Numbered from the stretch's first letter, positions 1 to 37,727 are shown. The stretch: DNA of 64,000 bases from Sphingobacteriaceae bacterium (GCA_046345155.1 JBKDKI010000003.1:2026-66025), one strand, 5' to 3'. Notes: generated by a model not told the origin, from the letters alone. Translations and numbers: made by a program.

Positions 1-331
1 AGCAACCGCAAACTCATATCCTACTTTTGTAAACTCAAATTTGTGTTGTACAAAATTTGACCTTTATAGAATTTTGATAAATGTATATTTGTGTTTAGAA
101 TTTATACCACGCCACCTGTGGAAACCTGCAGTTTTTGTAACCTATTATTTTTTATATACTTCATATAGAGGAATGTCTATAGATGGTTTTTTACATGTTT
201 AATTTCATTTAATGTTAATATAACATGTAGCCTTATTAAAATTTCTTACATTCGTTTATACAATTATAAGAATGAATTCTTACTAAAAAAGAAACATTAC
301 AGCCCCTCTGCTAATTTTATTAAATAAAGGA

Positions 332-973
332 ATGAAAACTAAAATTGAAATTATTGTAGCCGACGATCAACCAATTTTTAGAAAAGCTATGGTGGCTTAC
401 CTAAATACGTTTGATCACATTGAAGTAATTGCAGATGTATCAAACGGAAAAGAGTTGATCAACCTACTTAAAAAACAATTGCCGGATATTATTATTCTTG
501 ATTTAAAAATGCCGGTAATGGATGGTTGGCAAGCTTTTGATATTTTAAAACAGCGATTTCCTATTATAAAAGTGATTGCATTTAGTAATTCGGATAGTGA
601 TGAAGTTGTATTCGAACTATTTGATAAAGGGATTAGTAGTTTTATTTCAAAGCACGATAAACCCGAAACAATTGATAAAACAATACGTGAGGTGTATTTG
701 AATGGCTTTTATATGGATGAAATTAGATGGAAAAAAAGAGAAGAATATACGCTGATTACGAAGATAAAGGATAGTTTGTTCTCTGAAAGAGAAACTCAAA
801 TATTAAAAGAAGTTTGTAATGGTTCGTCAAATAAAAAAATAGCGCAGAAACTTTATATAAGCGCACCTACAGTTAGTTTTCATAAGCAAAATATTTACAG
901 AAAGGCGAATGTTAACAGTGCCATTGGACTGATAACGTTTGCTACCAAAAATAGCCTATTGACCTTGGATTGA
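332..973 (+). CDS. NarL/FixJ-family response regulator (REC + LuxR HTH)
   Basis: REC motifs IIVADDQ, DIIILDLKMPVMDG and K (ISKHD). C-terminal LuxR HTH FSERETQILKEVCNGSSNKKIAQKLYISAPTVSFHKQNIYRK. Confidence 0.95.
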   Translation: MKTKIEIIVADDQPIFRKAMVAYLNTFDHIEVIADVSNGKELINLLKKQLPDIIILDLKMPVMDGWQAFDILKQRFPIIKVIAFSNSDSDEVVFELFDKGISSFISKHDKPETIDKTIREVYLNGFYMDEIRWKKREEYTLITKIKDSLFSERETQILKEVCNGSSNKKIAQKLYISAPTVSFHKQNIYRKANVNSAIGLITFATKNSLLTLD

Positions 974-1001
974 GCACCCCTGTGTGTTCTACTAAAATCA
1001 C

Positions 1002-1097
1002 CTATGCGATTGCATAGATTTTTGCTCAAGTTTTAGGGCAATCTTCTGTTTTGTAAATATTTACGGTATCAGCATATTTTTCTATGCGTTTACATAG
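1002..1097. promoter_or_regulatory. Two CTATG-N6-CATAG inverted-repeat boxes (1002-1017 and 1082-1097); candidate operators upstream of gspE
   Basis: ctatg-cgattg-catag and ctatg-cgttta-catag lie exactly 80 bp apart in the 183-bp intergenic region. Confidence 0.45.
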
Positions 1098-1156
1098 GCT
1101 GGCACCCTGTTTATATTGGGTAAATTAGGGCTAAGTGCGAAAAGCCGCATTTTGTA

Positions 1157-2593
1157 ATGGAACTAAACGCTATAAGTACCGATTTTAAGAACCAGATCAG
1201 CATAGATCAAGCTTGGTATTATAAAGTTGTTCCCTCAAAACTAGAGAATGGAATTTTGCATTTGTATTGCGAAAAAAACAAGCTTACACCAGAGTTAAAA
1301 GTTGAATTGGAGATCATGCTGGGAAGATCTGTTAATTTGATAGCCGTTGAACAATTTCAGGTAGAGCAGTTATTACTTACTTCTTATCCAAGAAATGCGG
1401 ATATCGGTTTAAATTCGGCTAGTACCGAAACATACAGATTGAATGTGAATGATAGCGGTTTTTTAGAAACGCTGGTAAAAGAAGCCAAGAGTCTTAATAG
1501 TTCTGATATTCACATTGAAACGTATGGCGAAAAATGCAGGATTCGTTTTAGAGTAGATGGCGTTTTAATTGACAGACACAAACTTAATAAAGGTGAGTAC
1601 CCAACTTTGATCAATAAAATAAAAATTGCAGCAAGCTGCGACATTGCTGAAAAACGTATGCCTCAGGATGGTCGTATTCGTTTCAAGTTCAATAATTCAA
1701 ATTTGGATATTCGTGTTTCTATTTTGCCTACACTCTACGGTGAAAAGATCGTATTGCGTTTGTTAGGTAGCGATGCCTCACATATACAAATTGAAAAACT
1801 TGGATTTACCAAGGAAGAATTAGAGCGATACGAGTTAGCTGTGAAAAAGCCAAATGGTATTATTTTGATAAGCGGTCCAACAGGTTCCGGAAAAACAACC
1901 ACACTTTACGCAACTCTTAAAGTATTAAATAAGCCAACCAATAATATTGTTACCATTGAAGATCCAATTGAATACACTTTGGATGGAGTAAATCAAGTTC
2001 AATTAAAAGAAGAAATAGGATTAACGTATACAGAAGCGCTGCGCACTTTTTTGCGTCAAGATCCTGACATCATTATGCTTGGCGAGATTCGCGATGCGCA
2101 AACCGCGCAAATGGCTATTCGCGCTGCGCTAACGGGGCATTTAGTTCTTTCAACCATACATACCAATTCGGCTTGGGGGACGGTTAGTCGTTTAGTTGAC
2201 ATGGGGATCCCGCCTTATTTATTATCTAATACATTTAATTTATCTGTTGCACAGCGTTTAGTTAGAATTCTGTGTACTCAATGCAAAAAGCAAATACCCT
2301 TTAATAAAAATGAATTACCATTAAATTACCGTCATCATAACCTGTTAGTTCATTACACGGCTCAAGGCTGCCAACATTGTCATTTTACAGGATTCAAAGG
2401 TCGTAAAGCGATCTATGAAGTAATTCATATTACAAAAGAACTTTCTGAAGAAATAAAAAATAACGCCACTTCAGTTGACGATTACTTAAAGAAAAACAAT
2501 ATTGATAAGCTTTCCGACAATGCACTTAAGCTGTTTAAGGTGGGAGAAACTACGCTTGAGGAAATTTACCCTTACCTTATAAACGATAATTAA
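1157..2593 (+). CDS. gspE: GspE/PulE/PilB-family assembly ATPase
   Basis: SSDIHIE, DIAEKRMPQDGR, Walker A GPTGSGKTT, TIEDPIEY Asp box, RQDPDIIMLGEIRD, TGHLVLSTIH His box, tetracysteine Zn motif CTQC...CQHC. Confidence 0.95.
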   Translation: MELNAISTDFKNQISIDQAWYYKVVPSKLENGILHLYCEKNKLTPELKVELEIMLGRSVNLIAVEQFQVEQLLLTSYPRNADIGLNSASTETYRLNVNDSGFLETLVKEAKSLNSSDIHIETYGEKCRIRFRVDGVLIDRHKLNKGEYPTLINKIKIAASCDIAEKRMPQDGRIRFKFNNSNLDIRVSILPTLYGEKIVLRLLGSDASHIQIEKLGFTKEELERYELAVKKPNGIILISGPTGSGKTTTLYATLKVLNKPTNNIVTIEDPIEYTLDGVNQVQLKEEIGLTYTEALRTFLRQDPDIIMLGEIRDAQTAQMAIRAALTGHLVLSTIHTNSAWGTVSRLVDMGIPPYLLSNTFNLSVAQRLVRILCTQCKKQIPFNKNELPLNYRHHNLLVHYTAQGCQHCHFTGFKGRKAIYEVIHITKELSEEIKNNATSVDDYLKKNNIDKLSDNALKLFKVGETTLEEIYPYLINDN

Positions 2594-2594
2594 C

Positions 2595-4505
2595 ATGATA
2601 TTTAAAAGAATAGTAATCATAATTCTGTTAACAATTAGTTCAGTATTGAACGCACAAGATCGTTTGGATGTTATCGACGAAAAATTGAATCAACTGAGCA
2701 AAGACTATCCAGGAATAAATGAGAAAGTTGAACTTTCAATGAATGGTGCCACCGTTCAAGAATATGTAAGAGCAATAGGGCTCAATAATAATCTAAATGT
2801 TAACGTAGATCCTGGCTTGGATATTAAGCTTACAAATACTTTCAGTAAGGTAACAGCAAAGGAAGTATTCTTGTTCCTCTGCAAGCGTTATGATCTCGAT
2901 ATACAATTTGTTGGCCCTATAATCACTTTTGTAAAGTATGTTCAACCATTAGTTGAAAAAAAGATCCAGCTGAAAAAACTTAAGATCGATTATATGAAAT
3001 CCGCCGATCTTTTGAGCTACGATCTTGCAAACGATACTCTAGGAAATGTAGCAAAGGAGATCACTAAACAAAGTGGAAGGAATATCATTTTTTCACCGGA
3101 TTTAAGTAACAAAACTGTTAGTGGCTTTATGCAAAACGCAAGTTTAAACGCTGCCCTTGAAAAACTAGCATTTGCCAATGATATGAAGGTGAGTAAAACT
3201 GAAGATGATTTTTATGTTTTCGAAAAAAGGCAAGTATTTGCTGATCCAAAAAGTAGTAATACAGCTTCTTCGTTCGGGAACCTTGGAAATGAGGGAAGTA
3301 ACTCAAAGAATGGCAAGAGTATCATTGTAAAGGATGGATTAATAACAATGGATGTAACTAATATACCAATGTCTGAAATTGTGAGTGTAGTTTCAAAAGA
3401 ACTAGGAAAAAATTATTTTCTATTCAACGAACTTAGAGGAAATTCAACCTTAAAAGTTGTTGATGCTCCTTATGATGAATTCTTAAAACTATTGTTTAAT
3501 GGAACAGATATTACATTTAAGCAAGATGGAAGCGTGTATCTATTTGGTGATCGTAATTTGGAAGGATTAAGACAAAGTAAGCTAATTACATTACAAAACA
3601 GAACCATAGAAAAATTACTGGATTTTATTCCAGCTGATTTAAAAAAGGGGATTGAGTTAAAAGTGTTTGAAGATTTAAATGGTGTAATCGTTTCTGGTTC
3701 TCAACCACGAATAAATGAGTTGGAGAATTTTTTACGACAATTAGATGTAGTTGTTCCTATGGTTCATATAGAAGTGATCATTGCTGATGTACGAAAAAGT
3801 AATTCGTTATCAGCGGGAATTTCAATGGGTTTGGGAACTGCGGGTACAGGAACAACCGGAGGTACTCTTCTTCCTGATTATAATGTGAGCTTAAACTCTA
3901 AATCCATTAATAATTTGATCAGCGGGATCAACGGATTTGGTATTGTGAATTTAGGAAATGTTACACCAAATTTTTATTTGAACCTAAAAGCGATGGAGTC
4001 TAATGGAATTCTTAAGCTACGTTCAACTCCACAGATAGCAACTTTAAACGGACATGAAGCAAAATTAAGCGTTGGTCAAACTCAATATTACCTTGAAGTA
4101 AATAATAATCTTGTAACTCAGGCTAACACGCAGCAAAACATTTTGCAAACGCAAAATTGGAAAGCAGTAAACGCAGATCTTTCTGTAACCATAGATCCAC
4201 AGGTATCAGGTGATGAACAAATAACAATGACTATTAATGTAAAGCAATCGAGTTTTACCGAGCGTGTTTCTAATACAGCGCCTCCAGGGACAATTAATAG
4301 AGATTTTTCTTCATTAGTACGTGTAAAAAATGGAGAGATGATCATGTTGGGTGGTTTAGAAGAAAATCAGATGAATAATTCTGGCAGTGGATTGCCGTTA
4401 ATATCGCGCATTCCAATCTTGAAATGGATCTTCGGAAATCGTACTAAATCAAAATCAGAGAATAAATTAACCATATTCATAAAACCTACAGTTATATACA
4501 GCTAA
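2595..4505 (+). CDS. gspD: Secretin (GspD/PilQ family)
   Basis: Signal peptide and N-domains. Secretin core: LKAMESNGILKLRSTPQIATLNGHEAKLSVG, VRVKNGEMIMLGGL, SGLPLISRIPILKWIFG, ENKLTIFIKPTVI. Confidence 0.93.
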   Translation: MIFKRIVIIILLTISSVLNAQDRLDVIDEKLNQLSKDYPGINEKVELSMNGATVQEYVRAIGLNNNLNVNVDPGLDIKLTNTFSKVTAKEVFLFLCKRYDLDIQFVGPIITFVKYVQPLVEKKIQLKKLKIDYMKSADLLSYDLANDTLGNVAKEITKQSGRNIIFSPDLSNKTVSGFMQNASLNAALEKLAFANDMKVSKTEDDFYVFEKRQVFADPKSSNTASSFGNLGNEGSNSKNGKSIIVKDGLITMDVTNIPMSEIVSVVSKELGKNYFLFNELRGNSTLKVVDAPYDEFLKLLFNGTDITFKQDGSVYLFGDRNLEGLRQSKLITLQNRTIEKLLDFIPADLKKGIELKVFEDLNGVIVSGSQPRINELENFLRQLDVVVPMVHIEVIIADVRKSNSLSAGISMGLGTAGTGTTGGTLLPDYNVSLNSKSINNLISGINGFGIVNLGNVTPNFYLNLKAMESNGILKLRSTPQIATLNGHEAKLSVGQTQYYLEVNNNLVTQANTQQNILQTQNWKAVNADLSVTIDPQVSGDEQITMTINVKQSSFTERVSNTAPPGTINRDFSSLVRVKNGEMIMLGGLEENQMNNSGSGLPLISRIPILKWIFGNRTKSKSENKLTIFIKPTVIYS

Positions 4506-5725
4506 TGTTTTTCGATAAGCTTATACCTAAGAAACTACTAATAAAGCAGGAAGTTTGTTCCGTTGAGGCTATATCTGATGAGCTCGCAACTACATATCAC
4601 TACACCGTATTAAAGAGTAAAGGAAGTAAGTTAGAAATTGCGTTTAAAGGAAGTGTAAAGGATTTAGTTGAACTTCCAAAGCAGGTATTGAAAGGGAAGA
4701 TTCCAATCGTATTGGTGATAAACGGAAAAGGCGTAATTATAAAGAAGGTTGATCAGACGGAGCAAGACGATCAAACCATAGAGCAAACCGTTGAACAGAA
4801 TTTACCTGCCATTAACAAAGAGGATTTTTATGTACAGGTTTTTAAGCAACAGAATTCGGCTTTTATTGCACTTTGCAGAAAGGAATTGGTAGATCACTTT
4901 ATTAGTGAATTTAGCATCCATAAGTACGAACTAGCAGGGCTGTTGATAGGTGTACCGGCATTAATTGGATTACAACCTTTATGGGATAGTTTTAATACCA
5001 TCAAAACAAGCTTGTATGATATTGAATTGAGTAATGGTTCTATAGATAAAATAAGTATTGGAGTTGGGGGAGATCATACTTTAAGTATAGATGGTTTGAC
5101 TTTGCATAAGGAAAATGTGCTAGGTTTTGCCGCTGGGTTGAGTTACTTGATGCAGAACAAGGTCGCTGCAAATGTTAACGCTAGTTTGGAGGATGTTTCG
5201 ATTAAACACACAGAGAAAAATAAATTGAAGTTGATAGCTGTAGTGAGTGTGTCTATTGCTTTTGTTGTAGCATTAACTAATGTTATTTTTTACACGGGGT
5301 ATTTTGAGAAAAACAATACATTAGAAACAGAGCTTTCGCTTTATCAAAGTAAATACGACGAAGTAAATAAATTATTGAGCGATTATCAAAGCAAGAAAGA
5401 TCTTATAGAGGATGTTGGGATTTTTAATAAGAATAAAATAAGCGAGTATGCCGATAAGATCGCTGCTTCTATTCCTGAGGAAGTAACACTCACGCAGATG
5501 TATTTCAATCCTCAAAAAGAAGACATTGAAAGTGAGGATAGTTTAGTTTGTTTTGAAGCAAAAAACCTAAGAATAAGTGGCAACTGCAATAAAAGTCTTG
5601 TTATTAATGAATGGCTAAATGTGTTAAAGATGCAAGACTATATAAAGGATGTAAGTTTACTAAGGTTTACGTATAGCAAAGAAGGTGTTTTACCAAATTT
5701 TGAGATTAAAGTTATAACCAAGTGA
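4505..5725 (+). CDS. GspL-like / PilM-PilN fusion alignment protein
   Basis: Large cytoplasmic N-part, a single TM (~aa 241-263), coiled coil, then PilN-like IAASIPEEVTLTQM...LRISG motif. Stop/start overlap with the secretin gene. Confidence 0.7.
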   Translation: MFFDKLIPKKLLIKQEVCSVEAISDELATTYHYTVLKSKGSKLEIAFKGSVKDLVELPKQVLKGKIPIVLVINGKGVIIKKVDQTEQDDQTIEQTVEQNLPAINKEDFYVQVFKQQNSAFIALCRKELVDHFISEFSIHKYELAGLLIGVPALIGLQPLWDSFNTIKTSLYDIELSNGSIDKISIGVGGDHTLSIDGLTLHKENVLGFAAGLSYLMQNKVAANVNASLEDVSIKHTEKNKLKLIAVVSVSIAFVVALTNVIFYTGYFEKNNTLETELSLYQSKYDEVNKLLSDYQSKKDLIEDVGIFNKNKISEYADKIAASIPEEVTLTQMYFNPQKEDIESEDSLVCFEAKNLRISGNCNKSLVINEWLNVLKMQDYIKDVSLLRFTYSKEGVLPNFEIKVITK

Positions 5726-6258
5726 TGTGGACTAAACTGGATTACAATAAGAAATGTTACCTGATGCTCGGAGGAGTAATTCTATTTTTATACTTGGGCT
5801 ATAAGTTCAGTTTTTCGGACACATTTGTTTTAAAAAGTGAGATAAACGAGAAGGAGGAAAAGCTTATATGGTTAAAAGAAAAGGAAAAGGAACTTCCTAC
5901 ACTTAGAGCTAAAATGAATGAGTTTGAAAAGGCCTACACGAAGGGAGATTCTATTTCAGTGCGGGATAAATTAACCTCTTATATTTCAGAGTTTGCAGAT
6001 GAAAATTCGTGTTTAGTAACCGAAATACCGGGAACATCACTGTTCAATAAAAAAAACATTCAAGTACAAACTAACACGTTTACAATTAAAGGAAATTATA
6101 AGGATCTGCTCACTTTACTTCATACACTTGAAACAAAACATAGATACTTGGCCAGGATCATGTCCGCAAAGTTTTATACAATTAAAGATCAGCAGGCCAA
6201 AAAGAAGAATTTGTATTTAACCATCATTACTCAATCATTTGAACATCAAACATTATGA
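5722..6258 (+). CDS. GspM/PilO-like protein
   Basis: N-terminal TM, coiled coil, and FTIKGNYKDLLTLLHTLE, which resembles the PilO G.Y..L..FL..LE motif. Operon position agrees. Confidence 0.65.
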   Translation: MMWTKLDYNKKCYLMLGGVILFLYLGYKFSFSDTFVLKSEINEKEEKLIWLKEKEKELPTLRAKMNEFEKAYTKGDSISVRDKLTSYISEFADENSCLVTEIPGTSLFNKKNIQVQTNTFTIKGNYKDLLTLLHTLETKHRYLARIMSAKFYTIKDQQAKKKNLYLTIITQSFEHQTL

Positions 6259-7205
6259 AGAAGTCAGGAATTCTTAGTTTAGTTGTATTGTTTTTTACTT
6301 TATGTAAAAAGGATTTTATTGTAGAGAACATTGAGGATAAAACCATCACGGTTAATGCACCTGCTAATAATCTTATCACCACAAATAATAAAATCACTTT
6401 TTGGTGGGAAGAGTTAGATGGCGCTGAAAGATATAATATCCAAGTAGTAAAACCATCCTTTGCAAATATCGCTGAAATTATAAGTGATACGAATATTACG
6501 AGTACAAAGTTTAACCTGACGTTACAACCCGGTATTTACCAGTGGCGCATTAAGGCTATAAATGCAGGTGGTAATACAGCTTTTCAAACCTTCAATTTAA
6601 AAGTTGATACCACCAGCAATTTAAGTAGTTTAACAGTAAGCACCATTGATCCACCCGCAAATTGGCTAACTGGAAATAAAAGAGTAAGTTTCTCTTGGAA
6701 TTCGTTAAATGCAGCAGATTCATATCAAATTGTTTTGTTGAACTCAGCAAATGGTACTATTAAAGATACAGCGACTACGCTAACAACATATACATACACA
6801 TTTCCGTTGCAGGGAGCTTATTCGTGGAAAATACGTGCGTTGAACGATTTTAGTATTTCACAATACAATGCAGCGATAACTTTTACTATTGATCAAACAG
6901 CTCCATCGGCACCAATTCCTACATCGCCCTCACATGGAGCAATTGTAACTCCAACAAATAACCTTTTATGGAATAGAATAGGGGCGCCGGATGCCAAGTA
7001 TGATAGCATTTTTGTTGCTACAGATTCTGCATTTACCAATATTATAAGTTATACTAAGTCATACGCCCAAACCATAGCAATTAACGCACTTAATAGTTCG
7101 CCACCCGCAACCGGTAATACCTATTGGTGGAGATTGCGCTCGGTGGATTCGGTAGGAAATAGATCGGTGTTAAGTAATCAGTTAAAATTTAAATTGAATC
7201 CATAA
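6255..7205 (+). CDS. Lipoprotein with tandem fibronectin type III-like domains
   Basis: Lipobox LFFTLC-KKD. Three repeats of the type W..L..A..Y.IQ...Y.WRI.A.N (WEELDGAERYNIQ...YQWRIKAIN; WNSLNAADSYQI...YSWKIRALN; YWWRLRSVD). Confidence 0.75.
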   Translation: MKKSGILSLVVLFFTLCKKDFIVENIEDKTITVNAPANNLITTNNKITFWWEELDGAERYNIQVVKPSFANIAEIISDTNITSTKFNLTLQPGIYQWRIKAINAGGNTAFQTFNLKVDTTSNLSSLTVSTIDPPANWLTGNKRVSFSWNSLNAADSYQIVLLNSANGTIKDTATTLTTYTYTFPLQGAYSWKIRALNDFSISQYNAAITFTIDQTAPSAPIPTSPSHGAIVTPTNNLLWNRIGAPDAKYDSIFVATDSAFTNIISYTKSYAQTIAINALNSSPPATGNTYWWRLRSVDSVGNRSVLSNQLKFKLNP

Positions 7206-7206
7206 A

Positions 7207-7704
7207 ATGTTAAAAGGAAAAAAGGGAATATATATTCTTATACCTCTTAACATCTTTATTTGGAGCTTCTTCGTATATCGTATTTTCTATTACGAATCGG
7301 AAGATACTATTGTAGAGATATCACAAACTCGCGTAAATACAGATAATCTAACTGATACAGCCATATATAAATTAAAGATGAACTATGAAGATCCTTTTTT
7401 GAAGAAAGAAGCTGTTTTACGATCTCATAATTTAATTGGGGAAGTGAGACCAAAACAAGAAGTGAAAAAGACTGAAACAAAGATCAAGCCGAAAGAGGAA
7501 CCAGTAAAGGAAATTCTGGATGTAAAATATCTTGGCCTAGTTAAGAACAACTCTAGTGGATTTGCAACAGCTATTGTAAGTATTAATGGTACTTCCAGGC
7601 TTATCAAGCAAGATGAAGTTGTTGGTGATATGTGTTTTAAGAATTTTACAAACGAGAGTTTAACAATACTAAAGAACAAGGAGAAAATAGTAATTCAGAA
7701 GTAA
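7207..7704 (+). CDS. GspC/PilP-like protein (TM + HR domain)
   Basis: N-terminal TM, Lys/Glu/Pro linker, then YLGLVKN...TAIVSINGTSRLIKQDEVVG, resembling the GspC HR/PilP beta domain. Confidence 0.6.
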   Translation: MLKGKKGIYILIPLNIFIWSFFVYRIFYYESEDTIVEISQTRVNTDNLTDTAIYKLKMNYEDPFLKKEAVLRSHNLIGEVRPKQEVKKTETKIKPKEEPVKEILDVKYLGLVKNNSSGFATAIVSINGTSRLIKQDEVVGDMCFKNFTNESLTILKNKEKIVIQK

Positions 7705-7827
7705 GTAAAGTTGGAATTCTAAATATTTAGTTTTTTTTAGAAGAAAATTAATGTTAATTATTTTAGTCTTTAAAGATTTAAATTTTTTTAGAACTTAAAC
7801 ACCCTTATTAATTATTAACTTTATTGC

Positions 7828-8043
7828 ATGGAACGTAAAGAGATATTGGAGCAGTTGGCAAGTTTGGAGTCGGTTTATGGATTAGGTGCAAGAAAGTACT
7901 TAAATGATTTGAATTTAGGAAAGCAGTTCATTTGTGAATGTTATGAGAGCATTCGCGAGGATCGCGCATCGATGGAAAAACATTTTGGAATAACCTTGGT
8001 AAAAAAAATAGTGACTTATGCAGAAGTGAACTGCGAGGACTAA
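7828..8043 (+). CDS. Small hypothetical protein (71 aa)
   Basis: ATG preceded by an AT-rich Bacteroidota-type initiation region. No recognisable motif. Confidence 0.45.
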   Translation: MERKEILEQLASLESVYGLGARKYLNDLNLGKQFICECYESIREDRASMEKHFGITLVKKIVTYAEVNCED

Positions 8044-8415
8044 AACTGAGTTCGGTTATGTTTGTCGTCATTGGGTTGCAGCTAAAGTTTGGCAGCCTTG
8101 CGTAGTTAGGTTTTCGAAGCATGAACTTTCTTAATCGATAAAAGATACTTTAAAAATATATATGTTTACTAGCGAGGGCAAATAAAAGTCGCAAATCAAT
8201 CGCTGTTCAGGACAAATTTAGTCCAAATTCAACTGCTTAAGTATAGTTGCCGTTACGTAAAAGTTTCTTGACTAGGGTACAACACAGTGATTTATATTTT
8301 AAATCCTAATTCAAATTAATTCATTAAAATGTACGTAATAAATATCTAACCACTTTTCACTCTTTGTGTGCTTGCATTCTAGTTTATAAATTGTTCACAA
8401 AGTAAGCTCAAGGTT

Positions 8416-8446
8416 TTTGGTATGAAAATGAAACTCATTAAATTTG
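8416..8446 (+). promoter_or_regulatory. Bacteroidota sigmaA promoter (-33 TTTG / -7 TAAATTTG)
   Basis: TTTG 8416-8419, 19-nt spacer, TAAATTTG 8439-8446. Confidence 0.6.
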
Positions 8447-8604
8447 TTTATTGAATTCTAGGCTTATCATTCGAGAAGCCACAGTTAGCAGTTATCTTAA
8501 GTCGTAATTATTGATGCACCACTATGAGATGTTCTTCTCGTGCGCGTATTTACAACATTTAATATTTACCACATTTATTATTTATTAATTTAAAACTGTT
8601 TAAC

Positions 8605-8973
8605 ATGTTTAATAGAAAGCGAAAATGTAAAAATCCTGATTGTCGAATAGAATTCGACCCTATAAATCCAAAGGCCGATTGTCATAACAAGTCGTGCAAT
8701 AACCGTATGAACCATTTAATTAGAATGGCCAAAAAACTGGGCATCAAATCTCAGGAGTTAATTTGGAATTATGTTATAATGCGATCATGTTATGATCAGC
8801 GGAGAATAACTCAACACGGTGATTATTTAGAGGAGTTAGGTGTGAATTTTAATGCATTTCCCCCACCTGTGCCATTTAAACCTGGTGATCCACCATCGGT
8901 TTTGGTGGCAGGCGATCTAGGTCTGGTATTGATCAAAGATAAATTATTCAGAATTGTAAAAAAGACAAACTAA
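8605..8973 (+). CDS. Zn-ribbon-containing hypothetical protein
   Basis: CKNPDC...CHNKSC cysteine pairs. The C-terminal half (LEELGVNFNAF...GDLGLVLIKDKLFRIVKK) recalls a widespread Bacteroidota small Zn-ribbon family; this is from memory and not verified. Confidence 0.7.
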   Translation: MFNRKRKCKNPDCRIEFDPINPKADCHNKSCNNRMNHLIRMAKKLGIKSQELIWNYVIMRSCYDQRRITQHGDYLEELGVNFNAFPPPVPFKPGDPPSVLVAGDLGLVLIKDKLFRIVKKTN

Positions 8974-9479
8974 TGGAATTACCTAAAGGAATACAGCCAA
9001 CACGCGTTAATCTTAACGAGTTGGAGAATCACAAGGAAGAACAACCGGGAGCTACCGAGGGTGGTAAAGGTGAAACGGATTACAACGAGCGTTTAAGAGA
9101 GTTATGGAATAAGGACAAAGTATTTGATCACAAAACTAAGGCTAGTTTCAGAGCAGATCAAACAACTAAGGACGCACCCCCACCATCAGAGACGCCGAAT
9201 TATCGCAACGGTAAGTATATTATTCTAACCATCATTTTGATCATTGTGGTTCTAATTATTTACTATGTTATAAAGCGGCAGAGGAAGGTTCAAGAAGCCA
9301 TGAGATCTAAAATGGAATCGGGGGATGAGCCATATAATTACATTAACTCATTAAGGGCTTCAGATTTTGGTCGCAATATTATGAGTGGGGCAGAGGTGTT
9401 TTTTTATCTGTTAATACTATTTGCTATTGTAAACATGATAGTTAAGGTCGCAAAAACATCTAAGGTTGTATTAGAGTAG
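8973..9479 (+). CDS. Hypothetical membrane protein (2 TM)
   Basis: TAATG overlap with the upstream ORF. Hydrophobic runs YIILTIILIIVVLIIYYVI and VFFYLLILFAIVNMIV. Confidence 0.7.
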   Translation: MELPKGIQPTRVNLNELENHKEEQPGATEGGKGETDYNERLRELWNKDKVFDHKTKASFRADQTTKDAPPPSETPNYRNGKYIILTIILIIVVLIIYYVIKRQRKVQEAMRSKMESGDEPYNYINSLRASDFGRNIMSGAEVFFYLLILFAIVNMIVKVAKTSKVVLE

Positions 9480-9499
9480 AATGACATGAAGCATAAAAT

Positions 9500-9540
9500 A
9501 ATTCTGGTGGTCATTTGTAAAATGGCCACCGGAATTTCTA
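9500..9540 (+). terminator. Intrinsic terminator-like hairpin
   Basis: aattctggtggtcattt-gta-aaatggccaccggaatt; the stem pairs with G-U wobbles on the + strand and lies 20 bp after the 9479 stop. Confidence 0.7.
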
Positions 9541-9687
9541 TTGTCTAAACTTTTGGGAGGAAATATTTACAAACTTAATAAAGTGATATTCATTTTGACT
9601 TGTGCAAGGTTATACATGAAGGGTACGTGGCTTTCTTTTTATGCCGTCACAACCTTTCTAAAAGTAATTACTGGTGATATAAATATA

Positions 9688-9858
9688 TAGCTGATGACCT
9701 TAGCTGAAATATTTCGACTATTGCTAAACGCTGCTGAAACTAGCTTAACATTGCTGAAAAGGGATGAGCATTGCTTACAATTGCTGAACAGCGCTGATGC
9801 AGTAAGCAAAGGTAAGCATGCAATTTTGAAATGGCCTGCTGAATATAGCTTAGCCGAT
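9688..9858. repeat. Array of TGCT(G/T)AA-type motifs in strict 10-bp phase
   Basis: GCT cores at 9703, 9723, 9733, 9743, 9753, 9773, 9783 and 9793, all in one register. Inverted copies (TAAGCA) at 9803 and 9813. Further copies at 9690, 9838 and 9848. Confidence 0.8.
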
Positions 9859-9944
9859 GAAAAAGGGATTATTCAACTTAATAATGAATTGTGCTTTAAT
9901 ATAGGTGTAATGAGGCAATTTTAATTTTTGAAGACATCTTAGAG

Positions 9945-10283
9945 TTAACCTTCAATAACGGTTAGCGCAACTGTTAAATCAATGTTTGCTATGCCACCTA
10001 CCAATATGTATTCGCTAGTTGGATCAATGTTTTCACGGTAGTTAAATTGGGTAATGCTTCCCGTTAAAATAACTTCCTTTTTCAGTAAATTTTGGCTTTC
10101 TGGATCTTTGTGTAATTTCTTAAAGTGAAACTGAACTATTGCTGGTTTATTAGGGTCTGGCTCTATGGCTGCTTCAATAATAAAATTAGCAGTTCTTGGA
10201 TTTATGTTAACCGGTATTGCGAGGGTAAATTCCTTGTTTTTCTTTAGTGACAGTTGTTTTCTTTGAAGTATGAATTTTTCCAT
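9945..10283 (-). CDS. Hypothetical protein (112 aa, predicted beta-rich)
   Basis: Clean ORF 30 bp downstream of the XRE gene on the same strand. Alternating hydrophobic pattern. Confidence 0.65.
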   Translation of the reverse strand: MEKFILQRKQLSLKKNKEFTLAIPVNINPRTANFIIEAAIEPDPNKPAIVQFHFKKLHKDPESQNLLKKEVILTGSITQFNYRENIDPTSEYILVGGIANIDLTVALTVIEG

Positions 10284-10313
10284 TTGCTTTAGAAGCTTGT
10301 TTTTGAGAAATTA

Positions 10314-10529
10314 TTATAGATCCATTAATTCTCCAGATGAAACCTTAAGAGCTCTTGCAACTTCATGCACAAAAAATGCGGTAGGTGTAAAAGTACCTGA
10401 CTCTAATCTACAGATACTGTGTTTGGACTTCCCAATAAGCTTACCTAATGCAACCTGGGTCATCTCTTTTTCTTCTCTCACTTTTGTTATTCTTTTGGCC
10501 AGTTTTTTAGTGAAAACATCTTTTTCCAT
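10314..10529 (-). CDS. XRE/Cro-CI family HTH transcriptional regulator
   Basis: LAKRITKVREEKEMTQVALGKLIGKSKHSICRLESGTFTPT is a classic HTH_3 pattern. Confidence 0.92.
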   Translation of the reverse strand: MEKDVFTKKLAKRITKVREEKEMTQVALGKLIGKSKHSICRLESGTFTPTAFFVHEVARALKVSSGELMDL

Positions 10530-10568
10530 GCATCAATATTACTCATTTTAATAAATTGTTCAAAATTG

Positions 10569-10590
10569 AAGTTGACATATATGTCAACTT
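10569..10590. promoter_or_regulatory. Perfect 22-bp palindrome; candidate XRE operator
   Basis: AAGTTGACATATATGTCAACTT equals its own reverse complement. It lies in the 94-bp divergent gap, just upstream of the -7 box TACATTTG (10604-10611). Confidence 0.75.
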
Positions 10591-10623
10591 TCAGATAGAA
10601 TATGTACATTTGTAAGTAAAAGT

Positions 10624-11289
10624 ATGATACGAGTTTCTGAACATAAACTTTACAGCAATAGAAAATTCACAGGCTTCCTACCAGATCCTCATTTTCCGCC
10701 AGACTTGGAATTGGAAATTAATATCACAGATATTGATTTGGGTGATCCGGATCTGGAAATTGATGGACGTGTATGTTTTACTCACTTGTTACCAGGTGAG
10801 CAAAAAGTGAATATAAATTTTGCCATTAATAAGTTAGACCTTATTAATAATTCATTATTCTTTACAATTAATACAGGTGATTTGGTTTGTAGGGTTTTAA
10901 CGGTCCTTAACTTTAAATTACCATCAGGTATAAATCCTCACATTAAGCATAAGCTTATAGGTTTAACTACTCACTCTAGACAAAACCACTCTAGGCAAAT
11001 TCGCTCTAGCTTAAATTGTAAAGATCCCCTTGATTTTGTTCAAAATTTAAGGGCGCTAAACCCTCAAAATTTCCTTCAACTCATTTCACGAGACTTACAT
11101 GCTCTGGAGGCCACGATTGACGGGGGCTCCCAGCAGGTATTTAAAAAGTGGGCAATTGCCGACCAAATCATCCGTTTGGCGGGTTACAGTTTGATCCCCT
11201 CAAAATATGTGGATTGGGCAGTAGAAAGGTACTTTTTAGAATATGCGAAAACAAAAGAACGATTAGGAATTAATGACATAATAATATGA
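10624..11289 (+). CDS. Hypothetical protein (221 aa)
   Basis: Long ORF behind a -7 promoter box, with ATGA overlap to the next gene. No family recognised. Confidence 0.7.
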   Translation: MIRVSEHKLYSNRKFTGFLPDPHFPPDLELEINITDIDLGDPDLEIDGRVCFTHLLPGEQKVNINFAINKLDLINNSLFFTINTGDLVCRVLTVLNFKLPSGINPHIKHKLIGLTTHSRQNHSRQIRSSLNCKDPLDFVQNLRALNPQNFLQLISRDLHALEATIDGGSQQVFKKWAIADQIIRLAGYSLIPSKYVDWAVERYFLEYAKTKERLGINDIII

Positions 11290-11879
11290 GCTGGAAGTTA
11301 TTTAACGAAATATATGAAAGGAAAAGGGAGGAGTTTATAGCCTTCGATACCACCTTGAGCGAGCATGAAGTTGATCTAAAATCCTATCACAGTTTATTTT
11401 CAAAGGCCTTTGAAGCTTCCTATAACAAATTTGTAAGTGGAAATAGGGCGGCAGTAGATGCCTTAAATAACAATTTTGTTATAGATTTTGAATCATGTGA
11501 AACCCTTGAAGACAATTCCGGTTATGTGGTTTTCTGGGTTCAGCCAATAAATCCAACTTCTTATTACACTAAAATCTCACCCAAAGAAATTCTAATTGAA
11601 GGGATTATGTTTGAGGTTCGCTGGTTTCTTGGAAAGCAAATTGTAAGTGGCGTTGAAAATCCAGTATTCAAATACGAAATATGTGGATGGTTTCATCCCA
11701 ATAAGTGGCGTGGCAGAAATCAATTGAATTATTCTCCTGTTGGGAAAACCACTTTCGCTGGTTTTGATCGAATTGTTAGTGAAAAGTATGAACTAAGTGA
11801 TAGAGGCATCACTCGTGCCATGAATCAGGATTTTGATTGTCATTTTTATAGATGCCTCTCCTTCTACTTTATCAAGTAA
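11286..11879 (+). CDS. Hypothetical protein (197 aa)
   Basis: ATGA-coupled to the upstream ORF. Rich in aromatic residues. No family recognised. Confidence 0.7.
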   Translation: MSWKLFNEIYERKREEFIAFDTTLSEHEVDLKSYHSLFSKAFEASYNKFVSGNRAAVDALNNNFVIDFESCETLEDNSGYVVFWVQPINPTSYYTKISPKEILIEGIMFEVRWFLGKQIVSGVENPVFKYEICGWFHPNKWRGRNQLNYSPVGKTTFAGFDRIVSEKYELSDRGITRAMNQDFDCHFYRCLSFYFIK

Positions 11880-11906
11880 GCTAGAAGAATTTACAAGGGA
11901 TTTAAA

Positions 11907-12245
11907 ATGAAAGAAACAAAGTATAATAGCAAAGAAATTGAAGATAAGTATAATCTTATTTCTATTAATGAGCTTATGACTTTGTTGGGTTATACAGATA
12001 AACGATCAGTTAGGAATTGGTGTGAAAAGAAGCGCATACCGATTATAGAACTGGGAAAAAACGAATACGTCAATAGAACGAACATTACGGAGTTGATCCA
12101 AAGCCAGCTACCTATAAAGGGTAGCAGACCACCAGCTGACAGAGATACACCGGGTTCAGGTTCTAATACGGAAGTGAAATATGTTCCTGAAAGCAAAATC
12201 GTAGCCAAATATTTAGCCAAGTATGAGAGAAAGAACAAAACTTAG
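11907..12245 (+). CDS. Excisionase-like (MerR/HTH_17-type) DNA-binding protein
   Basis: LISINELMTLLGYTDKRSVRNWCEKKRIP winged-HTH pattern. Overlaps the integrase start by 23 nt. Confidence 0.7.
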   Translation: MKETKYNSKEIEDKYNLISINELMTLLGYTDKRSVRNWCEKKRIPIIELGKNEYVNRTNITELIQSQLPIKGSRPPADRDTPGSGSNTEVKYVPESKIVAKYLAKYERKNKT

Positions 12246-13545
12246 TTTGCCGAAAAAACAGCGGCCAAAGGGCTTGTTCTTGTATTGTAATGGTTGTAAG
12301 CACTACTATTCCAATGATAAAGAAGGTATTTGTAGATGTGGTAACTTGGTATATAAGGCTCGAATCCATGTGCCCGGTACCAATCATGGTATTAAAATAA
12401 AAGTCTTTGGCACAAAAATCTTTCGGGATGTGCTCAATCAGTTTTACGAATTCAAAGAGAAGCTGGAGTCAAACTGCTATCAGAGCGTACCCATTAAAAG
12501 AAATGAAAATACCCCGATCAGACTAATTGATTGCTTTGCTTATTACATGGGTTATCTCAATAATGTAGATGTTCCAAAGCACAAACAAAAAAACCGTGAT
12601 AAAAAGTATATCGCCAAATACGATTTGCTTTTTGAGCAGTACAAAGATGCACTTGAATTAAACGGAGTAAACTGTGAAATATTAAAGTTCAAAGAGGTGA
12701 ATGATGATATGGTTGGTTTTGTACATGAGTATTTTTTAAAAAACAAAGCTCTTGCCAATAAAACTTACAATAATAATATGGCATTGCTTAGTGCGTTTAC
12801 CTCACATGTGATCAATAAATTTAAGTTAGAGTACCAAAACCCCTTTCTTGGTATTCCTGAAATGATTGTTACACCTAAGGTAAAGGCGATAGGAGAAAGT
12901 GAATTCTCAAAACTGCTAAATTTAATTACTCCGGAAAATGGAATCCAATTAAAAACACTACGCTCACGAAAAAATGTCAAAAAAACCAATCACTATAAGC
13001 CTTGGTTGCGATTTGCTTTTAAACTCGGTTTATATACTGGAGGAAGAAGCGAGGATATTGTAGAGTTAAAATGGTCAAGCATCCGTCTTCAGGAAGATGG
13101 CAAATTTGATACACTTGAAACCATAGACCATAAAATTGACAGTGCGAATAGTCACAGGATAAGTGAAACAGATCGCTTAACAAAATTCTTTGCCATTACA
13201 AAGGAACTAGGTGATCTTTTAATGGAGATGGGTTATGAAAAATATAAAAAGACAGACAAATATATATTAGCTCCTGAGGATGGATTAAAGCGATCGAACG
13301 TTGCCGGAATTATCAGCAGGTCATTCTCACATTATTATGCTCAGTTAAATACCGGAAAAGTTATTACGTTTAGGAATTTGAGAAAAACATTTATGACAAG
13401 TGCATATAAAGAATTTGGTTTAGCTTCAACGGCGCTTACCAATCATAAGAATCCATCAATGACAAATAAACATTATTATGATAAAGAAGTAACGCGAGAT
13501 GATGCGAAAGAAAATTTTTCGGTCTTCAAAAAGAAAATTATTTAA
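12223..13545 (+). CDS. Tyrosine recombinase/integrase
   Basis: SAM-like core (LANKTYNNNMALLSAF) and catalytic R (LYTGGRSEDIVELKW). Box II variant TFRNLRKTF, then LTNHKNPSMTNKHYY (H...Y). Ends 100 bp from the ssrA 3' end. Confidence 0.93.
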   Translation: MRERTKLSLPKKQRPKGLFLYCNGCKHYYSNDKEGICRCGNLVYKARIHVPGTNHGIKIKVFGTKIFRDVLNQFYEFKEKLESNCYQSVPIKRNENTPIRLIDCFAYYMGYLNNVDVPKHKQKNRDKKYIAKYDLLFEQYKDALELNGVNCEILKFKEVNDDMVGFVHEYFLKNKALANKTYNNNMALLSAFTSHVINKFKLEYQNPFLGIPEMIVTPKVKAIGESEFSKLLNLITPENGIQLKTLRSRKNVKKTNHYKPWLRFAFKLGLYTGGRSEDIVELKWSSIRLQEDGKFDTLETIDHKIDSANSHRISETDRLTKFFAITKELGDLLMEMGYEKYKKTDKYILAPEDGLKRSNVAGIISRSFSHYYAQLNTGKVITFRNLRKTFMTSAYKEFGLASTALTNHKNPSMTNKHYYDKEVTRDDAKENFSVFKKKII

Positions 13546-13548
13546 CAA

Positions 13549-13574
13549 ATTTCCGTACTCCATTTCCGTACTCC
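13549..13574. repeat. 13-bp tandem direct repeat ATTTCCGTACTCC x2 (candidate integrase arm sites)
   Basis: Exact copies at 13549-13561 and 13562-13574, between the integrase stop and ssrA. Confidence 0.75.
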
Positions 13575-13603
13575 AAGGCAAAAAATGAAACTCTCAAAAA
13601 TGA

Positions 13604-13638
13604 AAAAACCCCTGATAGCAAGGCTTTCAGGGGTTTTT
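13604..13638. terminator. Inverted repeat downstream of ssrA (terminator and/or att-associated symmetry element)
   Basis: aaaaacccctga-tagcaaggctt-tcaggggttttt, 7 bp from the tmRNA 3' end, with A/T tracts on both sides. Confidence 0.65.
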
Positions 13639-13645
13639 AGTTGAG

Positions 13646-14010
13646 TGGACCCGGAGAGATTCGAACTCTCGTCCAAATAAGGAAAAAATAAGCTTTCTAC
13701 ACGTTTAGTATTAACTTGATTTTCGATCGAAGCCAGGCGTTAATTCATACCAAACTTCAACTTAGTTACTTGTATTGTTTTTGCACGTAACACTTCAAAA
13801 ACAAACTGCACATTTATGATGCATCATCCAAGGCGCGGAGCAGTTTAGCTCCCTGGGATGCAAAGGTTGCTAAATCCTAGATTAAGCAGCCATAGCGTAA
13901 GAATTCTCTTCGCCAAATAAAGTTTTGAAAGTTCAGTTTAAAGAGCTCGTCTTACAACGCTCTACATGCTTACCTATTTGATGCGCTTACTGTCAAAACC
14001 GGTCGGACCC
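13646..14010 (-). ncRNA. ssrA: tmRNA
   Basis: 5' end GGGUCCGACCGGUUUUGACAG. 3' T-arm/acceptor GACGAGAGUUCGAAUCUCUCCGGGUCCA with G3-U70 Ala determinant. Tag ORF 13914-13882 encodes (A)GEENSYAMAA*. Confidence 0.97.
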
Positions 14011-14178: not shown

Positions 14179-14700
14179 ATGAAAAACGTTTTATTCCTAT
14201 TAGCACTTGCATTTGGTATTCAATTGCAGGCTCAAACAGTTAAATCAAAAGCACTTAAGCTTAAATACACTACACCGGCCGGATGGGCCGTAAGTGAAGC
14301 CGGCGGAAAAGATTCGTGGGATCAATCCGGAAATGATCTGTGCCCATGCTCTAGTTTGCATTTTACAAAAGATAATAAAGATGGGAAATTGAATGTACTT
14401 GTTTATCCAACTACCGTTAACGGATTAGATTCTGCTAAACGCAACATGGTTGGTAAACAAAAATTTGTAGATGTAGAGAAATATGATAAAACACGCAATA
14501 AGAATTTTTCTTTCGAAAAGCGCCGTTCAAACTTTACGCATATTAAAACAAATGCCAAATCATATGAGGTTATTCGTTACAAGGCTAAAGTTGATGATCA
14601 TTATTACCTGATCTATACATGGCAGGAAAACATGCGCATGATGAGTCCTGATACCGAGAAAGAATTGTTCGAAGTGATCAATAGCCTTGAGCCGCTTTAA
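14179..14700 (+). CDS. Secreted hypothetical protein
   Basis: Signal peptide MKNVLFLLALAFGIQLQA-Q. LKYTTPAGW is reminiscent of PsbP/DcrB-like folds. Confidence 0.8.
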   Translation: MKNVLFLLALAFGIQLQAQTVKSKALKLKYTTPAGWAVSEAGGKDSWDQSGNDLCPCSSLHFTKDNKDGKLNVLVYPTTVNGLDSAKRNMVGKQKFVDVEKYDKTRNKNFSFEKRRSNFTHIKTNAKSYEVIRYKAKVDDHYYLIYTWQENMRMMSPDTEKELFEVINSLEPL

Positions 14701-16157
14701 TTCTTTTTTTCGATCAACTTATTTACAATTTCCATTTCCAGATCCTTTTTTTGAACAAGATCTTTAAAGCTGTAATTGGTTTCATGATCGGGTATAATGC
14801 CTCTTCCGGTATTGCCTTTGGTATACACGTCATGCAAAAGCCTGAAGGTTGGAATTCTTACCACCGTTTTGGTATTTGGTAATTTGTATTTTGGCGTAAT
14901 AATGGCATTACATCCTTCAATGGTTCCGCCTGTTTCTCTGCCAATGAATGTTGCTCTTCCGGTTTCCTTTAAATACGCGCTTACCACACAACTGGCACTA
15001 AAACTTCCTCCGTTGGTCAACACAAATATCTTTTTGTTATAATGATGTTTTTTCTTTGGTTTTAGTTTCATTACAAAAACATCCGTATCACCTTTAGTTT
15101 TATGCTTACCATAAATATGAAAATAACCGCGTGTTATCTTTAAAAAAATATTACCGCGTGTGTATTTTCTCATGGGATAATTTTTTATAGTGGTATACGA
15201 AGTTTGTGTTACTTCCTTATCTAACAAATACTTTAGCAATAACTGGCAATTGGTTAAACTTCCGCCTCCGTTATAGCGTAGGTCAATTATCAGGTTTTCG
15301 GTATTGTTCTTTTCCAATTGTTTAAATATGTTCTTATAAGCCTTTGTGAATTTGCGATGCGAAAACGCCTGAATATTCAAATGCATTGTTTTTTTCTCTG
15401 CATCTAAATAGCGGTAGCGCATTTTTGCTTTTTTGTATCTTACAAATAAACTGTCATCCTTGCGCTTTAAATTGTATTCAGGAATATTCAATGTTTTTAA
15501 GGATGGAATTCGCACCGTTTGTAATTGATCATTTTTAATGAATTCATAAGTAATAGTATCAGGGTAGTTCAATAAGGTAAGATAATAGCCGCTGTAGCCA
15601 AGCTGTCCGTATAATTTCTTACTTTCTTTGATATAACCATCAATTGTAATGATGCTTTGAGCAAACCGGTAAAACGAATCGGCCGGTATCCCATTGATTT
15701 TCGTAACAATGGTGCCTTGTTTTAAAAGTGTATCGGTTTTTCTGTTCAATCCACCCAAAACATAAACTTTATCGTCTACAGGTAACAAGTAATATCTGGG
15801 AAAATTAAATTTTGCTTTGCGTACTGCTTTCTGATAATTTTTTGAATAAGAAATATCAGTATGCGCGCAATGTAATTTTTCAATAACCAGCTTTGTGCGT
15901 ATTCTAAATTGTCGCTCGGTTAAGCTGTCGGTAAACGAATTCACATAATCATTAAATAATTGATCGTAAAAGGCTTTTGATTCATAAATGCCTATCACCG
16001 GATGTATTCGAAATATGGCTTCTTTTAATACAAGCGCATCTTTTTTTAACTGAGCCGCGCTGTACTTTTTTGTCAATGCATCTGTTTGAGCATTGGTTTG
16101 GCTTATAGCGGCAAACATCAAAATAAACAACCATATACCGAATAAGCGAAACAACAT
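14697..16157 (-). CDS. S41 family (C-terminal processing/tail-specific) peptidase
   Basis: LIIDLRYNGGGS, VLTNGGSFSAS, FIGRETGG, GRGIIPD motifs. Start reassigned to ATG 16157 (MLFRLFGIWLF... signal peptide). Confidence 0.9.
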   Translation of the reverse strand: MLFRLFGIWLFILMFAAISQTNAQTDALTKKYSAAQLKKDALVLKEAIFRIHPVIGIYESKAFYDQLFNDYVNSFTDSLTERQFRIRTKLVIEKLHCAHTDISYSKNYQKAVRKAKFNFPRYYLLPVDDKVYVLGGLNRKTDTLLKQGTIVTKINGIPADSFYRFAQSIITIDGYIKESKKLYGQLGYSGYYLTLLNYPDTITYEFIKNDQLQTVRIPSLKTLNIPEYNLKRKDDSLFVRYKKAKMRYRYLDAEKKTMHLNIQAFSHRKFTKAYKNIFKQLEKNNTENLIIDLRYNGGGSLTNCQLLLKYLLDKEVTQTSYTTIKNYPMRKYTRGNIFLKITRGYFHIYGKHKTKGDTDVFVMKLKPKKKHHYNKKIFVLTNGGSFSASCVVSAYLKETGRATFIGRETGGTIEGCNAIITPKYKLPNTKTVVRIPTFRLLHDVYTKGNTGRGIIPDHETNYSFKDLVQKKDLEMEIVNKLIEKKN

Positions 16158-16188
16158 AAATGTTATATTTGTAGGATACTTTAAAGAT

Positions 16189-37050: not shown

Positions 37051-37138
37051 GGTAAAGGCCTTACTATGAAAAGCGCTTAAAATTTTGTAACTTTGGTAGT
37101 ATCAGGTGTGAGCGATCATACCTGCTTAATTGGTTAAA

Positions 37139-37720: not shown

Positions 37721-37727
37721 GCAGATC

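Follow-up and report, generated by a model that had tools for sequence, protein, structure and literature searches.

The cassette and its missing genes

How an operon for a type IV filament machine could serve its host without a platform protein, pilins or a prepilin peptidase is the question raised by a stretch of 64,000 nucleotides (nt) of DNA from a Sphingobacteriaceae bacterium (GCA_046345155.1, JBKDKI010000003.1:2026-66025), which is called the window throughout. Positions 1157-7704 of its plus strand hold a cassette of six translationally coupled open reading frames (ORFs), each separated from the next by 1 nt or overlapping it by 1-4 nt, in the order GspE/PilB ATPase, secretin, predicted GspL-like fusion of PilM and PilN parts, PilO/GspM-like protein, tandem-FN3 lipoprotein and GspC/PilP-like protein (E-D-L-M-Lp-C; Table 1). 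In related bacteria the missing genes form a partner block that is separable from the cassette yet linked to it; therefore, the locus is probably one system split by inserted DNA and not a platform-less machine. If the missing genes are understood as such a separable block, the lack of platform and pilin genes in a type IV filament operon is no longer an anomaly.

The window was examined for the missing parts by several methods. T2SSF, N_methyl and Peptidase_A24 domains were all absent from Pfam searches of its ORFs of at least 90 amino acids (aa), a set that left out short ORFs contained in longer ones or overlapping them, and Pfam likewise indicated no second T2SSE gene and no PilT retraction ATPase gene in the window. 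Comparison of the partner-block proteins of relatives with the 64-kb window by tblastn gave nothing at E <= 0.01, and a regular expression for the prepilin leader had no match in any of the six frames of the window, which from about 14.7 kb onwards consists of housekeeping genes. Among the features of a type IV filament system, the ATPase and the secretin are present in the window, and the GspF/PilC platform, pilins with a class III leader and the A24 peptidase were not found there. The left flank was read in L001 (loci compared with the window carry L numbers), which is the longest of five metagenome contigs encoding an identical secretin protein and is about 96% identical to the window in DNA sequence. 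No gspF, pilin or peptidase gene is present in the 8.5 kb to the left of the window in this contig, which contain an integrase, two large cargo genes of the type IX secretion system (T9SS) and a response regulator.

The preliminary description of this DNA had reported six coupled genes of the kinds named above and the lack of GspF/PilC, pilins and a peptidase in the 64 kb; the former agrees with the ORFs, Pfam matches and folds, and the latter with the results of Pfam, tblastn and the leader expression. It had also raised the alternative of an ordinary complete cluster, with gspF, pilin and peptidase genes just left of the window, which did not appear within the 8.5 kb seen in L001.

The partner block in related bacteria

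Relatives of the cassette were collected by scanning species-representative genomes with an alignment of the 406-aa GspL-like protein, which gave 41 loci, nearly all labelled as metagenome-assembled genomes (MAGs) of Bacteroidota, including MAGs of Flavobacteriales, Sediminibacterium and Sphingobacteriaceae. All 41 keep the order E-D-L-M-Lp-C, and about 44 Bacteroidota loci show it strictly. Clustering of the ORFs that flank the cassette detected a partner block of seven genes, which encode in order a MORN protein, a 425-aa protein, two minor pilins, GspF/PilC, the major pilin and the A24 peptidase (N_methyl matches in the block at 5e-6 and 7.5e-6). The block with GspF stands beside the cassette in 10 loci, the pilin and peptidase pair alone is adjacent to it in 8 more, and all 13 genes of block and cassette lie in one row in L039. 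Thus, the platform, lacking in the window, is a feature of the system family, in which it is encoded beside or near the cassette. The nearest relatives of the window have no partner genes within 10 kb of the cassette.

Both blocks are on a single contig, at spacings of 3.2, about 22 and 29.6 kb, in three relatives with 53-55% identity to the window in the GspL-like protein. In JBGAGD010000003.1, where the two blocks share a strand, the end of the peptidase gene (9,029) precedes the start of the ATPase gene (about 38,665); in JGI contig Ga0415385_0000150 the blocks, again on the same strand, are about 22 kb apart; and in a 21-kb JGI contig three response-regulator genes fill the 3.2-kb gap. For about 10 further GspF matches, the longest contig is equal in size to that of a cassette match. 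At the end next to the partner block, the gap in the two long contigs encodes a LuxR-type regulator together with a very large protein, and at the end 5' of the cassette it encodes an integrase (L014) or an SBBP/T9SS cargo protein (L055); these gap-end genes are of the same kinds as those 5' of the cassette in L001. The analogy suggests that the partner block of the window may be expected some 15-30 kb to the left, on the same strand (roughly 20-30 kb going by the two widest gaps), and it is most likely outside the 64 kb. A split locus was one of the two possibilities that the preliminary description had offered, and the blocks adjacent in 10 plus 8 loci, together with the three contigs that carry both, support it.

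Several features of the partner block and its surroundings vary among the relatives or recur in them. The MORN_2 and ~425-aa genes always open the block (L020 13240-15465 and equivalents), and neither protein is a standard part of a type II secretion system (T2SS) or type IV pilus. The segment from GspF through pilin to peptidase is inverted in L026. In 6-8 loci (L007, L019, L025, L027, L028, L029, L048, L050) either of the two blocks has a third set of recurrent genes beside it, which the window lacks and which may be associated cargo or an adhesin. Its products are one of up to ~930 aa (in some loci broken up into short ORFs), an OmpH-like one, one of ~180-240 aa and a giant one of 1,000-1,900 aa.

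Several points weigh against reading the locus as a split member of a known system. The partner block has not been found for the source genome, the view of which consists of a contig of ~67 kb and the 8.5-kb left flank of a related strain; the assignments of the 178-aa and 165-aa cassette proteins rest on weak scores; and orthology to the Cytophaga hutchinsonii and Flavobacterium johnsoniae proteins discussed below is judged from gene order and domain content instead of direct sequence comparison. In addition, no GspF was seen for Aurantibacillus circumpalustris (CP121197.1, L006), the only complete genome with an orphan cassette, among the best 120 matches to the GspF of a close relative, a word-filtered list and not a genome scan, which reaches down to 63% identity. 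A cognate copy would be expected at about 80% identity or more, and the cassette proteins of A. circumpalustris are 64-81% identical to those of that relative.

This genome, in which the cassette is intact and has no partner genes within 10 kb, speaks for a truly platform-less and pilin-less module, which would act as a gated pore for polysaccharide, slime or other cargo, or would work with a platform and pilins taken from an unrelated type IV filament system. Purifying selection on the cassette in the lineage of the window is consistent with such a module, and T2SS-type secretins reportedly serve cyanobacteria and myxobacteria as slime nozzles (PMC12475490). The module is nevertheless unlikely, as both blocks are present in every relative where both could be placed, the Aurantibacillus negative has the limits just given, and GspE-family ATPases are not known to act other than through a GspF-type platform (established knowledge; cf. 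PMC10790770). As a lead only, A. circumpalustris may have lost its partner block. That part of the clade, with this cultured species as the candidate, keeps a selected cassette without any platform, pilin or peptidase block genome-wide is improbable; if true, the cassette would run pilus-free, secretin-gated export or be coupled to the platform of a foreign type IV filament system, and a complex of GspE, GspL, GspM, GspC and secretin would work without a GspF of its own.

The selection on the cassette bears also on whether it might be a decaying remnant, in which the partner block has been lost and the cassette is turning into pseudogenes. The secretin ORF is split in L009 (7758-9639), as is the ORF of the 406-aa protein in L034 (2574-3828), but both sit in MAGs, in which assembly errors are likely. 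The six genes of the window are intact and translationally coupled. Compared with L001, the ratio of non-synonymous to synonymous substitution rates (dN/dS) is 0 to 0.24 across all six (0.10 for the ATPase), and the 23 differences in the secretin gene are all synonymous. Purifying selection acts on each of the six; therefore, the cassette is in use, and its decay is extremely improbable. No RNA sequencing runs containing the secretin gene were found.

The encoded proteins and a possible assembly

Table 1. Features of the window and genes of the partner block of relatives.
Feature	Position	Strand	Length	Evidence or remarks
LuxR/NarL-type response regulator (receiver + GerE helix-turn-helix)	332..973	+		Pfam Response_reg 2.4e-22, GerE 3.1e-17
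GspE/PilB-family assembly ATPase	1157..2593	+	478 aa	Pfam T2SSE E 2.6e-126
Outer-membrane secretin	2595..4505	+	636 aa	Signal peptide; Pfam Secretin E 1.6e-37
GspL-like inner-membrane protein	4505..5725	+	406 aa	Predicted structure and Foldseek
PilO/GspM-like bitopic protein	5722..6258	+	177-178 aa	N-terminal transmembrane segment; start perhaps ATG at 5725
FN3 lipoprotein	6255..7205	+	316 aa	Lipoprotein signal peptide ending LC; invariant Cys17
GspC/PilP-like bitopic protein	7207..7704	+	165 aa	N-terminal transmembrane segment, linker, C-terminal small beta (HR-like) domain
Small conserved ORF	7828..8043	+	71 aa	Homologues right after last cassette gene in L001, L009, L038
XRE repressor	10314-10529	-		
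Excisionase-like helix-turn-helix protein	11907-12245			
Tyrosine integrase	12223-13545		440 aa	Beside tmRNA 3' end
tmRNA gene (ssrA)	13645-14010	-		
Partner gene 1, MORN-repeat (MORN_2) secreted protein			~240 aa	
Partner gene 2			~425 aa	N-terminal hydrophobic segment; without family match
Partner genes 3-4, two small pilin-like proteins (minor pilins)				
Partner gene 5, GspF/PilC			385 aa	T2SSF 4.9e-43
Partner gene 6, major pilin			140 aa	Clear KAFTLxEL prepilin leader; N_methyl 5e-6
Partner gene 7, A24 prepilin peptidase			~170 aa	Weak Peptidase_A24, 1.8e-4

The ATPase has a Walker A motif (GPTGSGKT) at residue 240 and two CxxC motifs (tetracysteine) at residues 373 and 405, and an exact look-up of the protein gave no match. 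NCBIfam profiles score it about equally as GspE (472 bits) and PilB (466 bits), in both cases under the equivalog cut-off (630 bits for GspE). The secretin is likewise under both cut-offs, with 142 bits for GspD (cut-off 351 bits) and 124 bits for PilQ; its Pfam domains N-terminal to the core are STN (2.1e-9, N0-like), FecR_C (5.2e-7) and one Secretin_N (4.5e-6), and it has no S-domain tail. None of the four genes after the ATPase and the secretin belongs to a significant Pfam or NCBIfam family.

The 406-aa family comprises 97 clusters, every one from Bacteroidota or metagenomes. Profile searches of PDB sequences with the 406-aa and 165-aa families gave no match, so that structure prediction was needed. 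An AlphaFold (AF2) model of the 406-aa protein was built from 42 of the 97 clusters (mean predicted local distance difference test score, pLDDT, 85.5) and compared with the PDB by Foldseek. The best matches of residues 1-220 are the cytoplasmic parts of GspL/EpsL/PulL (4pht_X, E 2.6e-9; PulL 5tkw; EpsL 1yf5), followed by PilM (5eoy) and FtsA. The middle of the protein is a single long helix of ~75 residues (transmembrane/coiled-coil) that contains the sole membrane span, and the C-terminal alpha/beta domain resembles the periplasmic domains of PilN and PilO (PilN 4bhq, Foldseek probability 0.99), in addition to which there is a weak Pfam match to PilN (E 0.0035). With a GspL/PilM-like fold in its N-terminal part and a PilN/PilO-like fold in its C-terminal part, the modelled protein is therefore a GspL-like fusion of PilM-like and PilN-like parts, as the preliminary description had stated.

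The 178-aa gene is always third after the ATPase gene. The best PDB match of the family profile is PilO (3jc8_Oa), at a weak E of 0.04, and alignment of the family with the C-terminal half of the 406-aa family by hhalign is also weak (E 0.0011, probability 21%). The 316-aa protein consists of three FN3/Ig-like repeats in tandem, its profile matching FN3 of titin (E 7.5e-11) and other FN3 domains, and is encoded at the same position in 43 loci. This FN3 lipoprotein is a conserved part specific to the Bacteroidota system, for which a periplasmic ring or a pilotin-like function are candidate roles. Pfam and PDB-sequence profile searches gave no sequence-level match for the 165-aa protein, and confidence in its single-sequence AF2 model is limited to residues 105-165, a small beta domain. 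The top Foldseek match of these residues is GspC-HR of the GspC-GspD complex (3oss_C; template modelling score 0.75, root-mean-square deviation 2.3 A), and they also match PilP (2lc4/2ivw/2y4y), with weak E-values of 0.13-0.5.

The response regulator encoded upstream of the ATPase is likely the regulator of the cassette operon. In L007, L009 and L024 a homologue directly precedes the ATPase gene, and in L052, L053 and L054 the partner block is flanked by related regulators, so that LuxR-type regulators are associated with both blocks. The 71-aa ORF downstream of the cassette has a dN/dS of 0.04 against L001 and no match in Pfam and PHROG searches; its membership of the system is uncertain.

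By analogy with T2SS and type IVa pili (T4aP), the GspL-like protein would offer its actin-like cytoplasmic domain as the docking site for a hexameric GspE/PilB ATPase and, in the inner membrane, would pair with the PilO/GspM-like protein via their periplasmic domains. The GspC/PilP-like protein, via its C-terminal HR-like domain, could connect this pair to the N-terminal (N0) domains of the secretin, and the FN3 lipoprotein may be an additional periplasmic or outer-membrane component. Filament assembly itself requires a GspF/PilC platform, major and minor pilins and an A24 peptidase, which this lineage encodes in the separate seven-gene block. The six genes are in all likelihood the motor, alignment and pore half of a Bacteroidota type IV filament machine, for which protein secretion and a surface pilus are both possible functions.

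Neighbouring DNA and comparison with known systems

The region between the cassette and ssrA (window 7828-14010), in which several ORFs without family match accompany the integrase, the helix-turn-helix protein and the repressor, resembles a small element integrated at ssrA; three of its ORFs have homologues downstream of the cassette in L030. A second, orthologous tyrosine recombinase is encoded divergently just 5' of the cassette or of a pilin gene in eight loci (L009, L010, L012, L014, L026, L035, L042, L046) and 7.5 kb upstream of the cassette in L001 (1-1025), and is 52-58% identical between loci. This recombinase could delimit, at one end, the DNA that splits the cluster, or could be a locus-specific invertase.

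The integrase at the tmRNA 3' end, with its excisionase-like protein and XRE repressor, and the recombinase upstream of the cassette in L001 and eight other loci would fit a horizontal acquisition of the cassette, carried on a mobile genomic island that did not bring the partner genes. However, a search of window 1-13,400 and of L001-L005 for att-type repeats (12 nt or more) of the 3' end of ssrA found none, and GC content is flat across the region. The order and strand of both blocks are kept in the two long contigs, which fits an insertion between the blocks and not an import of the cassette. In a distant relative (L028) the cassette lies ~3 kb from the tmRNA gene, without an integrase, and is followed by the same 173-aa, S41 peptidase and alanine dehydrogenase genes as in the window; therefore, the position beside ssrA is ancestral and the cassette is chromosomal. 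Only the window from ~7.8 to 13.6 kb appears inserted, and the arrival of the cassette on an island is highly improbable.

Two further interpretations of this region were rejected. A filamentous-phage-like extrusion module, as might be suggested by the secretin, the ATPase and nearby integrases, does not agree with an ATPase of the GspE type instead of the Zot type or with the chromosomal location of the cassette in relatives, and the phage matches of the downstream ORFs are to a repressor, an excisionase and an integrase alone. As a sign of a phase-variable promoter, inverted repeats were sought in the DNA from the upstream integrase to the ATPase gene, and those present are AT-rich and inconsistent across loci; the only notable pair, of 31 nt, flanks the regulator gene in L009.

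Large T9SS cargo proteins with DUF7948/SBBP/Ig_7 or NHL domains and a Por_Secre_tail recur just 5' of the cassette in several relatives (L001 1452-7261, L006 3089-6259, L055 1-124). Elsewhere in the window, positions 37130-38606 encode a pair of neighbouring Reeler-domain proteins, of which the second carries a C-terminal sorting domain of the T9SS. The ORFs of the S41 peptidase (14697-16295, minus strand) and the alanine-dehydrogenase-like protein (16093-17397, plus strand) overlap by ~200 nt at their 5' ends; both were called from TTG, and their true starts are probably further in.

The complete loci of relatives were compared with a putative T2SS described by Wang et al. (2017) in C. hutchinsonii (chu_3191-chu_3202), in which chu_3195 is D, chu_3196 is E, chu_3197 is the peptidase, chu_3198 is G, chu_3199 is F, and chu_3200 and chu_3201 are minor pseudopilins; three of the four genes after D (chu_3191, chu_3193, chu_3194) are PilM/N/O/P-like by HHpred alone (PMC5553014). 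Fjoh_0611-0622 of F. johnsoniae have the same layout, and there are counterparts in Pedobacter heparinus and Odoribacter splanchnicus (PMC5553014). The 13 genes of L039, L020, L021 and L034 match this system in their order of minor pilins, F, G, O, E, D and four further genes; in both, E and D are recognised by Pfam, the four later genes have no Pfam family and are remotely PilM/N/O/P-like, and the hosts are Bacteroidota. Since the order of the relatives' complete loci is that of the published cluster, the window belongs to this known system, and the tie to a C. hutchinsonii-type system made in the preliminary description is correct. On gene order and domain content, the cassette is the counterpart of chu_3191-3196 and Fjoh_0617-0622. 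The window differs in having the half with E, D and four genes alone, detached from the half with F, G, O and minor pilins.

The only genetics on the system come from C. hutchinsonii and connect it with the use of cellulose, with adhesion and with the protein content of the outer membrane; mutants in D, F and G are slow on cellulose and cellobiose and reduced in adhesion (PMC5553014). The relatives add a fuller parts list for this little-studied system, 13 genes including those for the FN3 lipoprotein, the MORN-repeat protein and the 425-aa protein, and its hosts are abundant freshwater bacteria, the source organism being common in metagenomes from fresh water. According to Denise et al. (2019), the "T2SS" of Bacteroidetes groups with T4aP, and their models do not detect the Bacteroidetes system (PMC6668835); the 13-gene list could improve the TXSScan/MacSyFinder models, which miss it. 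Natural-transformation genes of Riemerella were considered as relatives and rejected as unrelated, the genus being without pilus homologues.

The cassette shares with the T2SS of Proteobacteria the GspL fold, which is the best structural match of the 406-aa protein and includes the GspE-GspL complex (4pht), as well as a GspC-HR-like domain and the tetracysteine motif of the ATPase. In contrast to that system, its ATPase and secretin score under the GspE and GspD cut-offs (472 vs 630 and 142 vs 351 bits), its GspC-like protein has no PDZ or coiled-coil domain, its secretin has no S-domain, no GspS pilotin is encoded, and its genes are not in one operon with pseudopilins. With T4aP of Pseudomonas, Myxococcus and Thermus the window has in common the ATPase, the secretin and PilM/N/O/P-like alignment proteins encoded in an operon with the secretin, as well as a multi-locus arrangement, which is usual for T4aP systems (PMC6668835). 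Unlike T4aP, the window apparently fuses the PilM and PilN parts in one GspL-like protein, has its ATPase gene in the secretin operon and not with pilC and pilD, encodes an FN3 lipoprotein that has no T4aP counterpart and a secretin without AMIN domains, and lacks a PilT retraction ATPase. Because a multi-locus layout is normal for T4aP-like systems and a complete system has already been described, the split arrangement is less remarkable than the preliminary description implied: the window carries a member of a known, poorly characterised system, split as is normal for the wider family.

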